Notes: generated by a model not told the origin, from the letters alone. DNA of 63,459 nt, filler included, from Bonamia ostreae (GCA_040357525.1; 35 parts of 35 records of this genome joined end to end with filler, not necessarily neighbours in it); one strand, 5' to 3'. Positions 1,830-63,459 are shown, counted from the first letter of the whole stretch. Numbers and translations: made by a program.

Positions 1830-1995
1830 GTCGATAAAGATTTAAATCTCTCCACTTTCCAGTTCATCCTTTAAGAATGGACACATTTCTTACATTTTTT
1901 CGATGAAATGTTGTTTTGCATATCATCCATTTGAAATTTATTGCTAGTTTTAATTAGACGATTGCTTCAAATTTCGAACAAAATTTTTAAAAAGT

Positions 1996-2312
1996 TTATT
2001 TTGTTTCAAATTCCCATATTCGTTTGTCCAACGGACACAGGAACTTCTTCTTTTCTCTCAACCAATCGGCGATGCAATGAAAATGGAATATGTGCCCACA
2101 TATTCCTTTAGAAAGTCCGCATTGAGCTTTTTGGTCTTCATCAAGAACATGTGTGCATTTCAAACCTACATAAACGCTAATGACATAATCAAACATATTT
2201 CGTTGAGACTGTTTCTACAGATTGAACAATTTTCATTGAACAAATCGGATTCGACGAAAGCAACTGCATTCCATTTTTCTAATGTAAAAACTGAGTTTTT
2301 CGAACTCGACAT
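1996..2312 (-). CDS. RBX1: RING-box protein (RBX1/ROC1-like RING-H2), 2 exons; intron 2166-2194 (29 nt)
   Basis: The spliced product MSSSKNSVFTLEKWNAVAF...NCSICRNSLNEICLKC...GICGHIFHFHCIADWL...CPLDKRIWEF matches the RBX1 pattern KWNAVA..NCAICRN..C..C..GxCxHxFHxHCIxxWL..CPLD..W. Confidence 0.88.
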
Positions 2313-2344
2313 TTTTTATTACTGTTTATTGATATAATTCTTTA

Positions 2345-2620
2345 ATGGATTCCATCGCAGTTCTGAAAACTAAAGATTTGCCTAAAGAGACTGCCGTCAA
2401 ATATATCGAGAAATTTCTCAAAGTCCAAGTTTTCACAATATATTTTGTGAACGAGCTTTTATTCGGGACATGAACATTTTTTAATTTTTCACTTAACTGG
2501 AAAATTTAAAAATAGGAAAAGAAAACAGGTTTAAGCGGAAAGAGTCAAATAGAAACAAGAAATTTGGATAGATTAAAATTGATTAAGTCCAATGTCGAAA
2601 ACAACTGTGAAACGTCGTAA
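2345..2620 (+). CDS. Small 62-aa protein missed by the ORF track, 2 exons (intron 2429-2515); weak resemblance to Pol I subunit A14-like proteins
   Basis: ATG at 2345 and a GTTTTC...TAG intron give MDSIAVLKTKDLPKETAVKYIEKFLKVQEKKTGLSGKSQIETRNLDRLKLIKSNVENNCETS*. Confidence 0.55.
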
Positions 2621-2925
2621 TAAATATTTAATTTATCATTTTTTTAATTAAATATTTAAAACTGTAATTTTGCGTTTTTTACAATTTACAAACGATATAA
2701 AATCCAAATTATTTTACAAAAAAATGGTTAAACAACAACAGAAAATAATCTGATAAAATCGAAAAAAATAAAAAAAATCTGAACAAACAATAACAAAAAT
2801 CCGATAAAATTAAAAAAAACAGAAATAAATCTGAAAAAAATTAACGAACAGAATAAAAATTGAAAAAATTACAATTAAAAAAAATCGAAAAAAATAACAG
2901 AAAAATAAAAAAAAACAGAAAAAAA

Positions 2926-59025: not shown

Positions 59026-60229
59026 CGTTATAAATCACTAGGTCTTGCCTTAAAATATATGATGGTGTTAAGAAAGTAATGGTTTTTATGGATCAGAGTT
59101 TTTAAATTATTGACAAACATGCTGTATTTTTATACAAAATTTTAGGTAAATCAATACATGTTACAAGAATCAGCGTTCTCTTTGCAATAAATTAAACATA
59201 TTTACCGAATAGATGAATTTACAATAATGGGTAACATAGAAGTGATATTTGAATTGAATCGAAAATTCGTCTCATTACTAATCTATATAATAGAAATATT
59301 CTCCTCTATTTAAGGTGGCAGTGCCGTGGTCACTCAATTTCTGCTGTTTGAGAAAATAAATCAAACACATGGTATGTTCAAGTTCCTAACTTTACAAGGC
59401 CATGGATTATCATGTACCAAACCCCACACCCCCTGGATATCTGTGTAACTGAAAGTTAAAATAATGTAAGTGATATCATAACGTTCACGAACAATTTCAG
59501 TACACATATATAATTTTTAAATACAATGGTATGCATTAAAGATGCTTTACCACGAGAAATATAGTGAGAGACATGTTCTTTCCATTGTCTACCCATAGGT
59601 GTCGCTGCTATTAAATCACACTTACAATATTCTTGTAAACGCTTTGTAAAATGTTAAACAATAATTGAACTTAGCTAAATCAATTGAATGATCAAGAATT
59701 TAAAATGTGTTATTGCTTGTAAAGAAATTCCAGAAATTTTCGTTATAACCAACATAAAGCGTATTTGAAAGGTTTTGATATCTTACCTACATAAACCGTG
59801 AAGATAACGACCAGTCATCAATCAACTCATGCTATATAACTAATACAAATTACNNNNNNNNNNNNNNNNNNNNNNNNNNNNNNNNNNNNNNNNNNNNTTA
59901 ATTAATTAANNNNNNNNNNNNNNNNNNNNNNNNNNNNNNNNNNNNNNNNNNNNTATATTATCATGTAAACCTTTCAAAATCAAATCTACCATACTCTCTG
60001 CTGCTACTACCTGTTGACCTACTTCTACAAATATTTCTTATCGTATCTATGGAATTTTCAGCGAGGCTGCTTAAAAATTACATGTGTCCCTGATACGATT
60101 TAATCCAATGCATTATCTTCATATTCAAGATGTTTTACATTTTACCGCTGCACCACAGGAGAGAATGACAATCATAAGAATGTAGTAGTGTTTAATGAAA
60201 ATTGGTAGAGTATTTCGTTATATTGCGAC

Positions 60230-61545
60230 TTAGTATCTCGTTATATCGAGTCAGTATCTCACTATAACGAGTTTATGATCTCGTTATAACGAGTTTTTGT
60301 CTCGGTCTTACGGTCATTATATCGAGATTATTATTTCGTATAACAAGATTATAACAAATGAGTCAAATATCTCGTCATAACGACATAGCTAAATCGCTAT
60401 AACGAGAGACGTAACTTGTCATAACGAGATAACTTACGGATACAATTCAGGGTCTTATCTTCTACGTCCCGTTGAGAGGTCACCAGCTGTGGGTTGTTCC
60501 CGAAATTCAAGATTAGTTCTAAAACAAGTTGTAACTATGGTGCAATTACACATACTTAAACAAATTCATTAGTAAAATAAATCAAATATTTTTTCTTGAT
60601 TGATTTGCAGTTCTCAACATCTTACCATGTCAAATTTATCGACAAATCCGTCTCCATAATAATTTTAATTGCTTTTAAAAATAAAAATATGTTGTGAAAA
60701 ACTTCATCAACATGTATCGATTCACAGAAAATCTAATATGTGAATAAAGTCGATGGTTTACTTGAATAAATGGTCTTTTTCCGTGATGTTCTAACAAGAG
60801 CAATAAAACCAGGCTGCTGTGGGCTTGGTCGGCTCACTTTCCATTTAACGAATATTTTAAATGAAGCGTATTTAGTAATAATGTTCTGTGTCTGACAGAT
60901 GTCTGTCTGCTATTTTGTTTTATAATGATTATATCATTTATTGGGGAATTCACATCAGACTCTGCATCTAGCCGTGTTGATTTGTCGCTCATATATCGAT
61001 TCACCTGTCATTTTGACAATCCGATGTCGCAAATTCGACTACATAAAGTTATTAAACCAATAAGTAAAAATTATATTTATCATTTAAAATGATAAAAAAT
61101 AATTAAAATAATATACATTTTTCTTGGCAACGCAAACTCAATCCTTTTGATACATAAAATGCTAGTATATCGTTACTTATTCATTTGTTTGATGTAAGAT
61201 ATGAACATTTTCTCGTCATCTTTAACGTTTCCATAGATACCAACTCTTTATAACGACATAACTAACTCGTTATCACGAAATAGTACATGTAACTCGTTAA
61301 AGCGAGATGACTAACTAGTTATAAAGTGATAACTAACTCGTTATAAAGAGGTGATTAACTCGTTATCATGAGATACATGTAGGTAATTGTTAACTAACGA
61401 GATCATGAACTCGTTGAAACAAGATGACTAACTCTTTATAACGAAGTGATTAATTTGATATAACCAGATACTAACTCGTAATACCGAATTAGTTAACACG
61501 TTGTAACGAAATAACCCAGTCGTTTTAACGAGAGGATTATCTTTT
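60230..61545. repeat. Two clusters (about 60230-60430 and 61245-61545) of degenerate palindromic CTCGTTATAACGAG units at about 21-25 bp spacing
   Basis: Repeated ctcgttat(a)acgag variants separated by short AT-rich linkers. Confidence 0.75.
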
Positions 61546-61817
61546 CTTATTTTTAGCCTATACGAATTTCGTGAATAAAAATAGTGAAAAATTTTTTTTA
61601 CTAGTAGAAAATATCTTAAAATAAAGTTTGTCAAACAAGTCGTTATCACATACTAANNNNNNNNNNNNNNNNNNNNNNNNNNNNNNNNNNNNNNNNNNNN
61701 TTAATTAATTAANNNNNNNNNNNNNNNNNNNNNNNNNNNNNNNNNNNNNNNNNNNNAATATTTTTGCAGTTTTTTGATAGAAATAGTTTTCTAACAACAA
61801 ATTAAAAAAATTTAATT

Positions 61818-62855
61818 TTATCCAAATTTGTTCGAATGCGCAATAAAACTTATGAAGACGACCCAAGTCAAAGTCATCATACTAGCGACTGGAGCCTTTT
61901 TAATTTATCAAAGTAAAATTTTGTTTTCAGTAAATTTGATATTTTATAAAAGTTACTTGCAGAGGAACTGGGCAATATTTAAAATTGAAAAATTGAAAAA
62001 TCGGCATTACCAGAAAATCCACTGCGGACGTCAAAATGAATTTTCGGCCGGTTTCTTTCAGTGAAAAAGAACGGCCCTCCAGTCGATTTATCAAAACCAA
62101 AAACATAAACAACGAAAGCGGATCCATAAAAAGTTGGTCCACTGCAATTTGCCACAAAAGTTTTTTTGTTTGGTGTCTCGGAAATTTGTTTAAACTTATT
62201 TTGTGTAAAAAGGGGAACCACCTTTTTATTCATTTTTGTTTATTAAAAAATTTATTATTTTGTTTTTTGTTTTATTAAAATTTATTTTTTTCGTTTTTCG
62301 TTTTTATTAAATTTATTTTTTTCGTTTTTTTAAATTTATTTTTTTCGTTTTTTGTTTTTTTTTTAAATTATTTTATCGTTTTTTTATATTTTTTTTGTTT
62401 TTCGTTTTATTGAAATTTATTTTTTTTCTTTTTTGTTATTAAAATTTATTTTTTTCGTTTTTATTAAAATTTATTTTTTCGTTATTTGTTCTTATTAAAA
62501 AAATTATTTTTTCGTTTTTTTATTAAAATTTATTTTTCGTTTTTATTAAATTTATTATTTTGTTTTTATTAAATTAATTTTTTCGTTTTGTAGTAAAACC
62601 ATCCGGTTAAAGGTCCAGTAATACAGAAACCATAAAAAGCCATTGACATAATCCTTCTTTGGTCAATTCCATTATTTTCGATTTTCTGTGAAATATAATC
62701 ACCCAAAATATACAACGATCCCTAAATTTAAAAAAATTTAACCCCAAAAACTAAATTAGTTCGAATTGGATATTTGTCAAATTGATTTCTTATAAACCGA
62801 CCTTTTTTGATTAAACAATCTTTTGACCATTTAATTAAAATTCTAGTTATAAGTT
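61818..62855 (-). CDS. Mpv17/PMP22 family membrane protein, 4 exons; introns 62722-62742, 62222-62599 and about 61896-61956
   Basis: KYPIRTNLVFGGSLYILGDYISQ, DQRRIMSMAFYG...GP, IAVDQLFMDP, LEG and QFFNFKYCP...TWVVFISF. Confidence 0.88.
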
Positions 62856-63459
62856 TTATGACCATTTCTGGCTAAACTTATTGGTTAAATATAGTTTAAT
62901 ATTTTTGACATAATCTGAAATTTACATTTTTGAAAATGGCCGTTTAGAAATTTAAAATTTGATGCAAAATCGATTTATTTTTTCTCAAATTTGGACAACC
63001 AAAAATTCTTTTCCGCTTCAAGTTCAGCTCTTTCTCTCTAAATTTTAAAATTTTCAACTTTAATTTTGAGTTGTTCAGATTCGACTTGGATCGACAAAGA
63101 ATTTAATCTATTTTTTTCATTTCGGTAATTTTTGTTTTCGTTTTCCATTTTTTCCATTTTCTCAACCATTTTTAACATTTTTTGGCTAAATTTTTAAGAA
63201 AAAAAAAACTTTTGGTTTATTTGATTTTTGGCAAAATTTTGATTATTTTCGGCATTTTTTTCTGTTTTTGGAGTATTTTGATGTTTTATCTTTTAATTTT
63301 GAAATTCAAACTTTGTCGGAAATGTAATTTAGTCCTGATTGAATTCCTTCTTCGAAAACGTCTCCAAAGGCCGAAAATGGCAATTCTGAATAATCGTCTT
63401 CCAAATCAAATAAAATGTTTTTCTTTTTTTTTTAATTTTAACAAAAATTTTCGTTCCAA

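Follow-up and report, generated by a model that had tools for sequence, protein, structure and literature searches.

Genes and public protein models

The window analysed here is a 63,459-nt stretch of DNA of Bonamia ostreae (GCA_040357525.1; 35 records joined with filler, positions counted from the first letter), and this report concerns the 5' splice sites (donors) of its introns, which with few exceptions begin with GTT, and mostly with GTTT, instead of GTRAGT. The window is AT-rich (27-33% G+C) and is eukaryotic nuclear DNA of this haplosporidian oyster parasite, in which genes are split into short pieces of open reading frame (ORF); masked stretches (44 N, 12 letters and 44 N) recur about every 1.8 kb. 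Pfam and homologue searches recognised genes for an RBX1-like protein, the C-terminus of MLH1, an SF1-like protein, a COX19-like protein, F-actin capping protein alpha, a PLAC8 protein, a multi-RRM protein with a CCCH finger, a WD-like propeller, a GPN-loop GTPase, coatomer zeta, phosphomevalonate kinase and an Mpv17/PMP22 protein.

The translation of the coatomer zeta exon is a 100% match to 'hypothetical protein MHBO_003030 [Bonamia ostreae]', and a second exon translation is a 100% match to MHBO_003017 of the same species. Three public protein models (P0001, P0002 and P0057) map exactly onto the window, among them P0057, a 100% match to the Mpv17-like gene product. These models are themselves predictions. 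According to section 15 of PMC11069148, B. ostreae was annotated by funannotate with published transcriptome reads as training, and the three models used here may have another origin.

Reconstruction of the introns

As ORF joining alone is unreliable, the intron set was built on external evidence. It comprises 45 GT-AG introns, of which 3 are defined by contigs of a public run, X1 (class A), 29 by other external evidence (class B) and 13 by ORF restoration only, with the shortest in-frame solution taken (class C). The GT-AG borders are forced in two of the X1-defined introns, and the other 43 were sought as GT-AG introns, which is an assumption.

X1, whose kind is labelled 'RNA?' by guess, contains 36% of the sampled words of 36441-45399. 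Its contigs were compared with one block (43689-45399), in which 45023-45312 is uncovered, so that an 86-nt GPN intron (class B, below) lies outside the cover. All three predicted introns that the contigs cover are missing from them. At 44807-44829 and 44099-44118, the flanking letters permit no shift of the boundaries, and the GT-AG borders are exact. A third contig joins 44205 to 44278 (its loose end at 44278 equals window 44191-44205), and the depth across 44206-44277 is 0. Contig depths range from hundreds to thousands and vary between contigs; these differences, together with the loss of segments that interrupt conserved codons, fit spliced RNA.

44807..44829, plus strand: GPN-loop GTPase intron, 23 nt, GTTTTC..TTAG, class A; left out in X1, its removal restoring the P-loop between G-K and S-T
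44099..44118, minus strand: WD-like beta-propeller intron, 20 nt, GTTTTC..AAAG, class A; these 20 letters are missing from an X1 contig
44206..44277, minus strand: WD-like beta-propeller intron, 72 nt, GTCTTT..TTAG, class A, with a GTC donor; X1 contig end and depth 0
45361..45399, plus strand: donor GTTTTC of a further GPN gene intron; X1 contigs exit at 45364, and this is the sole GT in a 5-nt ambiguity; acceptor masked, not counted among the 45

The GPN exon that follows 44829 begins at position 10 of the Pfam ATP_bind_1 profile. Past 45364, the X1 sequence translates into what is, by the family motif, a plausible continuation of the GPN protein. One X1 contig (44278-44933) bridges the 5' ends of the divergent WD-like (minus strand) and GPN (plus strand) genes, whose start codons (44682 and 44759) are separated by about 75 nt, which suggests either overlapping 5' ends or unspliced or DNA material in X1. 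Two mismatches separate X1 from the window, 44559 C>T and 44625 G>C.

Class B introns were fixed by profile registers, homologues, paralogues and public models:

45019..45104, plus strand: GPN gene, 86 nt, GTTTCT; ATP_bind_1 profile positions 72 and 73 meet at the join, shortest in-frame join
2166..2194, minus strand: RBX1-like RING-H2 gene, 29 nt, GTTTGA; alone among 14 in-frame joins, it leaves the whole upstream Cys motif adjoining the downstream one, with a zf-rbx1 match
27813..27836, minus strand: COX19-like CHCH gene, 24 nt, GTTTTA; with this donor only, the first Cys stands 10 residues before the second (Cx9C), in the CHCH register
56548..56600, minus strand: coatomer zeta, 53 nt, GTTTTA; spliced translation equals P0001 at 174/174 residues
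35148..35173, minus strand: PLAC8 gene, 26 nt, GTTTTA; upstream Cys-rich motif kept, next exon from PLAC8 position 17, alternative donors also GTT
34950..34971, minus strand: PLAC8 gene, 22 nt, GTTTCT; PLAC8 profile runs to 76/77 and resumes at 78
16881..16900, plus strand: MLH1 C-terminal region, 20 nt, GTTTGC; Mlh1_C profile runs to 47 and resumes at 52, flanking open frames of 147 and 194 codons
26994..27015, minus strand: Cys-rich gene A, intron 1, 22 nt, GTTTTT; same aligned residue and phase in tandem paralogue B
26873..26891, minus strand: Cys-rich gene A, intron 2, 19 nt, GTTTTT; paralogue alignment
26673..26693, minus strand: Cys-rich gene A, intron 3, 21 nt, GTTTTA; paralogue alignment
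25923..25945, minus strand: Cys-rich gene B, intron 1, 23 nt, GTTTTG; paralogue alignment
25795..25814, minus strand: Cys-rich gene B, intron 2, 20 nt, GTTTAT; paralogue alignment
25597..25615, minus strand: Cys-rich gene B, intron 3, 19 nt, GTTTTT; paralogue alignment
38922..38941, plus strand: RRM gene, before the second RRM, 20 nt, GTTTTC; single possible donor, RRM_1 begins directly after the join
30422..30557, plus strand: capping protein alpha, 136 nt, GTTTTT; F-actin_cap_A 1-47 (about 56 at the exon end), then 59-99, single donor
57630..57652, plus strand: phosphomevalonate kinase, 23 nt, GTAATT, a GTA donor; homologue HMM 165.9 bits against 153.6 for a GTTTGG alternative
57206..57319, plus strand: phosphomevalonate kinase, 114 nt, GTTTTC, weak class B; homologue HMM 165.9 bits against 162.9 for a GTCAAT alternative
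62722..62742, minus strand: Mpv17/PMP22 gene, 21 nt, GTTAAA; P0057 exon map
62222..62599, minus strand: Mpv17/PMP22 gene, 378 nt, repeat-filled, GTTTTA; P0057 exon map, shortest in-frame join
61896..61956, minus strand: Mpv17/PMP22 gene, 61 nt, GTAACT, a GTA donor; P0057 exon map
31092..31113, plus strand: gene 30994-32709, 22 nt, GTTACA; join inside a block identical to P0002
31166..31185, plus strand: gene 30994-32709, 20 nt, GTTTTA; P0002 identity
31378..31400, plus strand: gene 30994-32709, 23 nt, GTTTTC; P0002 identity
31458..31482, plus strand: gene 30994-32709, 25 nt, GTTAAA; P0002 identity
31530..31549, plus strand: gene 30994-32709, 20 nt, GTTTTA; P0002 identity
31599..31628, plus strand: gene 30994-32709, 30 nt, stop-free, GTTTAT; used by the public model only, P0002 being without these 10 residues
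31761..31785, plus strand: gene 30994-32709, 25 nt, GTTTTA; P0002 identity
31921..31941, plus strand: gene 30994-32709, 21 nt, GTTCCC; P0002 identity
32007..32030, plus strand: gene 30994-32709, 24 nt, GTTTTA; P0002 identity

The choice at 2166..2194 uses the Cys-motif spacing of the RBX1 family. At 34950..34971, use of a GTAATT donor located 6 nt downstream would lengthen the protein by 2 residues. The hidden Markov model (HMM) for phosphomevalonate kinase was built from 47 of the 54 returned homologues (330-540 aa). P0002 contains 8 of the 10 rebuilt introns of gene 30994-32709, plus the further 30-nt one. The tandem paralogues A and B (25539-27193, minus strand) are identical at 77 of 146 residues (53%) and their three introns coincide in residue and phase; the intron interiors have diverged, but all six introns start with GTTT. 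Both proteins contain repeated CxxC motifs, with no Pfam match at E<=0.01, and copy A has a frame change near 27074-27120 that is not accounted for by a GT-AG intron.

The class C introns are as follows:

32422..32440, plus strand: gene 30994-32709, 19 nt, GTTTAA; single ORF-restoring solution, P0002 reads through to a stop
32544..32566, plus strand: gene 30994-32709, 23 nt, GTTTTC; ORF restoration, single donor
49418..49438, plus strand: gene 49208-50825, 21 nt, GTTTTA; joins 73- and 271-codon frames, shortest solution
50192..50235, plus strand: gene 49208-50825, 44 nt, GTTTTA; the two other in-frame donors are GTTGTT
50398..50417, plus strand: gene 49208-50825, 20 nt, GTTTTT; the other donor is GTTCAA
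38623..38655, plus strand: RRM gene, 33 nt, GTTCAA; single donor
63290..63311, minus strand: gene 62947-63431, 22 nt, GTTTGA; ORF restoration
63186..63209, minus strand: gene 62947-63431, 24 nt, GTTTTT; single donor
63038..63058, minus strand: gene 62947-63431, 21 nt, GTTGAA; ORF restoration, acceptor 63038 or 63034
55911..55932, plus strand: HEAT-like gene, 22 nt, GTTTGT; shortest solution, 4/4 candidate donors GTT
30707..30777, plus strand: capping protein alpha, 71 nt, GTTTTA; shortest solution
29340..29368, plus strand: Lys-rich coiled-coil-like gene, 29 nt, GTCAAA, a GTC donor; shortest solution
20653..20804, minus strand: gene 20383-21620, 152 nt, GTTTTT; shortest of 15 solutions

The end of P0002 reads the donor GTT TAA at 32422 as Val-stop, and removal of the 19-nt intron opens at least 82 further residues, up to a mask; P0002 may be truncated by read-through of this intron.

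Several candidates were discarded. The capping protein alpha junction at 30531/30541 (GTC and GTA donors) is spurious, the Pfam register joining exon 1 directly to 30558; the junction 62999-62868 was dropped as probably linking two separate genes, and those at 55195, 55205 and 55221 were also dropped, as undecidable. Codon-usage gene finders called antisense ORFs or too few introns, and a motif test at ORF ends was confounded by stop-containing words.

The donor consensus

At donor position +3, 41 of the 45 introns have T, with A in 2, C in 2 and G in none. Position +4 is T in 36 introns; +5 is T in 28, A in 8, C in 5 and G in 4; and +6 is A in 21, T in 15, C in 8 and G in 1. GTTT starts 35 and GTTTT 26 of the introns, the most frequent hexamers being GTTTTA (12), GTTTTT (7) and GTTTTC (6). 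The sequence-only reading had reported about 50 introns, about 45 of them with T at +3, three GTA donors, one GTC donor, and G at +5 in about three, and the counts of this independent rebuild come close to these. In classes A and B alone (n=32), +3 is T in 29 introns, GTTT is found in 25 and GTTTT in 19.

Among all 5797 GT dinucleotides on both strands of the window, 41.4% are GTT, 19.0% GTTT and 9.4% GTTTT. Against this background, the binomial probabilities of the counts in the 45 introns are 4e-12 for GTT, 2e-17 for GTTT and 8e-16 for GTTTT; for the 32 introns of classes A and B, they are 8e-9 for GTT (29) and 8e-13 for GTTT (25). Intron interiors (+8 to -5, 1468 nt) contain 48% A and 35% T, and relative to them the entropy is 1.05 bits at +3, 0.62 at +4, 0.31 at +5 and about 0 from +6 onwards. 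Base composition fails as an explanation, since A is more frequent than T in the interiors, yet it occupies +3 in only 2/45 donors. A frequency of T at +3 no higher than the intronic background would have undone the sequence-only reading; with 41/45 against 35%, it stands. The preference for U at +3 to +5 is position-specific and non-compositional.

Forty-two of the 45 donors agree with GTAAGT at just 2-3 of 6 positions, and complementarity to U1 of the GTRAGT type is absent. None of the 45 hexamers is a U12-type donor (/[AG]TATCCTT). The donor is shared across intron lengths, GTT being found in 33/35 introns of up to 35 nt and in 8/10 longer ones. On the exon side there is no preference for AG, with G at -1 in 10/45.

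The sequence-only reading had given 21 donors as examples, each of which has the hexamer named for it on one strand. Sixteen are in the rebuilt set and five are undecided: 37209 (GTTTTC, 72 nt) has an alternative at 37153 (GTAAAC, 21 nt); 36521 and 20383 may each be just the end of an ORF; 2429 has a GTG alternative at 2447; and at 55316 a stop-free, in-frame removal of 63 nt is the sole option. As for the minority donors that it had listed, GTA at 57630 (by 12 bits in the HMM comparison), GTA at 61956 (P0057) and GTC at 44277 (X1) were retained, leaving GTA at 20383 among the undecided.

Intron length, 3' ends and density

The 45 introns are 19-378 nt long, with a median of 23 nt, and 34 of them do not exceed 30 nt. 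Overall they are 81% A+T. The 3' end is WAG (AAG in 23, TAG in 22 and CAG in 0; P about 0.009 given 10% C in introns), and it is not preceded by a pyrimidine tract, A and T being about equally frequent at -3 to -6. No fixed branch-point motif was found in the set, in which TTAAA/AAATT is weakly enriched; yTAA is missing in 8 of 34 short introns, and its distance to the 3' end is not fixed. Genes are intron-dense, with at least 10 introns within the 1.7 kb of gene 30994-32709 and 45 in one 63-kb window.

Comparison with other lineages

Positions +3 to +6 of the donor pair with the 5' end of U1 (ACUUAC) and later with the ACAGAGA box of U6. G at +5 and a purine at +3 are among the most constant donor features, because of pairing with U1 and U6.

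The closest parallel is Entamoeba. According to the parts of Roy & Bowser (bioRxiv 10.1101/2022.06.08.495308) surveyed, all five Entamoeba species studied have GUUUGU(U) donors and a U1 5' end of ACAAAC, and Mastigamoeba has a separate compensatory change in U1. Bonamia resembles Entamoeba, as described there, in being an AT-rich parasite with GT-AG introns and near-universal U at +3 and +4 (41/45 and 36/45 in Bonamia). In both, +3 and +4 cannot pair with canonical U1 ACUUAC, and U at these positions improves pairing with U6 ACAGA. Whereas Entamoeba keeps +5 G and +6 U (88-90% of donors are exactly GUUUGU), in Bonamia +5 is U in 28/45 donors and G in 4/45, +6 is not fixed, and 1/45 donors read GTTTGT. 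Moreover, Entamoeba is intron-poor, whereas in Bonamia the motif is less strict, introns are much shorter and a gene can contain many of them (at least 10 in one case). The U1 of Entamoeba is known; none was seen in the Bonamia window.

Mikrocytos mackini and Paramikrocytos canceri, mikrocytids that like Bonamia belong to the class Ascetosporea, share with it extreme intron shortening and sequence-constrained introns, but in the sections of PMC10245619 consulted their introns are few (224), all 16-17 nt long and served by a minimal spliceosome, whereas those of Bonamia are frequent and 19-378 nt long. Myxobolid myxozoans and Dicyema (PMC13644364) are also parasites with GT-AG introns (median 22-27 nt), reduced splice-site motifs and no pyrimidine tract; their 5' signal is 'GTa', in contrast to Bonamia, where +3 is A in 2/45 and T in 41/45. 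With the GUAUGU lineages (Saccharomycotina, Giardia and Trichomonas), Bonamia shares a U at +4 that mismatches U1, but these lineages deviate at one position, keep +3 A and +5 G and have a canonical U1 (same portions of bioRxiv 10.1101/2022.06.08.495308), whereas Bonamia deviates at +3, +4 and +5.

The sequence-only reading had proposed an undescribed system. As a kind, a lineage-specific transformed donor is already known, from the GUUUGU donors and changed U1 of Entamoeba, whereas for Bonamia no description was found. The B. ostreae genome paper, in the parts covered, speaks only of 'canonical introns' (PMC11069148), and the literature surveyed on Bonamia and haplosporidian introns, splice sites and GUUUU/GTTTT donors does not describe the consensus; figure 3 of PMC10245619, the supplements of that paper and those of PMC11069148 lie outside that survey. 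New here would be three consecutive deviating positions including the loss of +5 G, in an intron-rich genome with introns among the shortest known. The two-position departure of Entamoeba is itself called unprecedented in the part of bioRxiv 10.1101/2022.06.08.495308 consulted. That B. ostreae, and perhaps haplosporidians generally, represent an intron-rich eukaryote whose donor departs from GUAAGU at +3, +4 and +5 seems slightly favoured.

If so, either the 5' end of U1 has been rewritten at three positions to a run of A, or many tiny introns are spliced without pairing between U1 and the donor, with the donor chosen via U6 and intron-wide cues. Bonamia would then offer a second natural test, independent of the first and more extreme, of whether small nuclear RNAs (snRNAs) co-evolve with splice sites, as in Entamoeba, or pairing is dispensable, as maybe in mikrocytids. 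The case is also relevant to the question of how an intron of about 20 nt can be recognised at all, given a donor motif that holds just about 2 bits beyond GU and shows no depletion in exons. In practice, this notifiable oyster pathogen will be mis-annotated wherever genes are predicted and reads mapped with default donor models and default minimum intron lengths.

Interpretation of the donor

Several observations weigh against the reading given here, concerning both the consensus and its mechanism. Every count comes from one 63-kb window, 13 of the 45 introns were placed by ORF restoration only, and the labelling of X1 as RNA is a guess. GTTTT occurs 45 times in the 13,247 nt of sense exon, where 38.8 are expected (GTTT 109 times), and no exonic avoidance of GTTTT was found; with about 2 bits beyond GU, the motif alone cannot define introns. 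Unsupervised GT..AG stitching of ORFs gave 64+55 'introns' on the real strands and 61+43 on the reversed sequence, and is thus noise, although among 539 stitched 'introns' GTTT starts 22/49 of those of 17-20 nt and 43/287 of those of 41-120 nt, a weak unbiased trace. These stitching results, the fact that GTT makes up 41% of all GT and the alternative donors at several junctions would all suit an artefact, in which the T bias arose from AT-rich sequence and from choosing GTT donors during ORF joining. Such an origin is very improbable. Three introns are fixed by X1 contigs and 29 more by models, Pfam registers, the 47-sequence HMM and paralogue alignment, none of which uses +3; GTT and GTTT prevail among these 32 at the probabilities given above, and homology verdicts against GTT were accepted (57630 and 61956). 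The consensus GUUU(U) of B. ostreae donors is very probably real and lineage-wide. The factual core of the sequence-only reading, a GUUU(U) donor nearly devoid of +5 G in place of GURAGU, is supported; for its cause, that reading had proposed A-rich compensatory changes in U1 and/or U6, or donor recognition that does not use this pairing.

As to how it is read, these may be ordinary U2-type GT-AG introns that have shrunk to about 19-30 nt and whose donor has drifted to a lineage-specific GUUUU followed by A, U or C, with signal beyond GU only at +3, +4 and +5, +5 G lost and WAG at the 3' end. The U run would be read by RNA pairing. Apart from G1 and U2, and in some cases +6, GUUUU offers canonical U1 no pairing. 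The likeliest reader would be a U1 with a 5' end that, through co-evolution, has become an A-rich complement of GUUUU, as in Entamoeba. An invariant U6 ACAGAGA box would help, its AGA pairing with U at each of +2 to +4 (U-A, U.G and U-A in the Entamoeba register). In the quoted register, ACAGA of U6 pairs with +2 to +6 (bioRxiv 10.1101/2022.06.08.495308, parts surveyed); there, U at +3 would form U.G, U at +4 would form U-A, and U at +5 would be a mismatch. We give this scheme as a whole, from shrunken introns to a co-evolved U1 with help from U6, about an even chance, and the re-coded, A-rich U1 5' end assisted by U6, taken as the reader of the donor, perhaps slightly less than that. The mechanism is purely inferred, as no snRNA was seen: the Rfam search of the window gave no match at gathering score and none to an snRNA even at E<=10 (six weak miRNA- or snoRNA-like matches are at chance level). 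It also has to accommodate the preference for U at +5 (28/45), which mismatches the C of the canonical U6 box, the detection of only U2, U4 and U6 in the related mikrocytids, the scant space that introns of about 20 nt would leave for U1 and U2 side by side, and the canonical U1 kept by most lineages whose donors are atypical (yeasts, Giardia, Trichomonas, Thecamonas and Mamiellales, in the same parts of bioRxiv 10.1101/2022.06.08.495308).

Recognition could instead proceed without U1 pairing, U1 being lost or unpaired, with the AGA of U6 on U at +2 to +4 acting together with U5 and Prp8 in an intron-definition complex that spans about 20 nt. Conservation is limited to +3 to +5 and peaks at +3 and +4, two positions open to pairing with canonical U6; this is consistent with such a mode, as is the lack of an exon-side AG consensus. 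In the related mikrocytids, with their introns of 16-17 nt, only U2, U4 and U6 were detected according to the parts of PMC10245619 consulted, and by our reasoning 19-25 nt would be very tight for U1 and U2 together. However, canonical U6, which offers C, leaves U at +5 (28/45 against 35% T in interiors) unexplained; the tightness is not the cause, since introns of 53-378 nt share the donor; and the enrichment of splicing-gene losses reported in the portion of PMC11069148 surveyed falls on the branch of paramyxids and mikrocytids, not on Bonamia. We regard U1-independent recognition as rather unlikely. Less probable still is a U run that serves as a protein-binding element, a surrogate pyrimidine tract or U-rich enhancer for an RRM protein like U2AF65, TIA1 or Nam8, with overall AU-richness relative to the exons marking the intron as in plants. 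The missing pyrimidine tract ahead of the 3' AG and the 81% A+T of the introns would suit it, and so would the low information of the motif and its occurrence in exons, which imply that other cues must exist; but the sharp order +3 > +4 > +5, with nothing from +6, agrees better with a fixed pairing register than with a protein site of loose placement, and A, as common as T in introns, is nearly excluded at +3.

Other features of the window

No tRNA genes were found in the window, and no relatives of the coatomer zeta protein were found in metagenome contigs. An SF1/branchpoint-binding-protein-like first exon lies at 24017-24478 (minus strand) and matches residues 11-48 of the KH domain of yeast BBP (E 8e-5) and Pfam KH-I_KHDC4-BBP; it stops in the middle of the KH domain, and the following exon was not found before the mask. 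The ORF at 2929-3300 contains EF-Tu domain 2 (GTP_EFTU_D2), a weak match (E 0.002), and looks like the C-terminal portion of a translation GTPase; it may be IF2-like, a reading that goes beyond the search results. The ORF at 3658-4261 (plus strand) encodes CCHC motifs of zinc-knuckle-like type and may be a retroelement gag; it gave no Pfam match at E<=0.001 with a query that included masked residues.

Tandem repeats are located at 20080-20350, 50540-50880 and 62230-62520 and read as Lys/Asn-rich peptide repeats in several frames; the last of these sits within the 378-nt Mpv17 intron. Gene clusters are separated by long tracts without convincing ORFs (about 5000-16300, 18200-20000, 40000-43600, 51000-54500 and 58100-61700), which fit the high non-coding share of ascetosporean genomes described in the part of PMC11069148 consulted.

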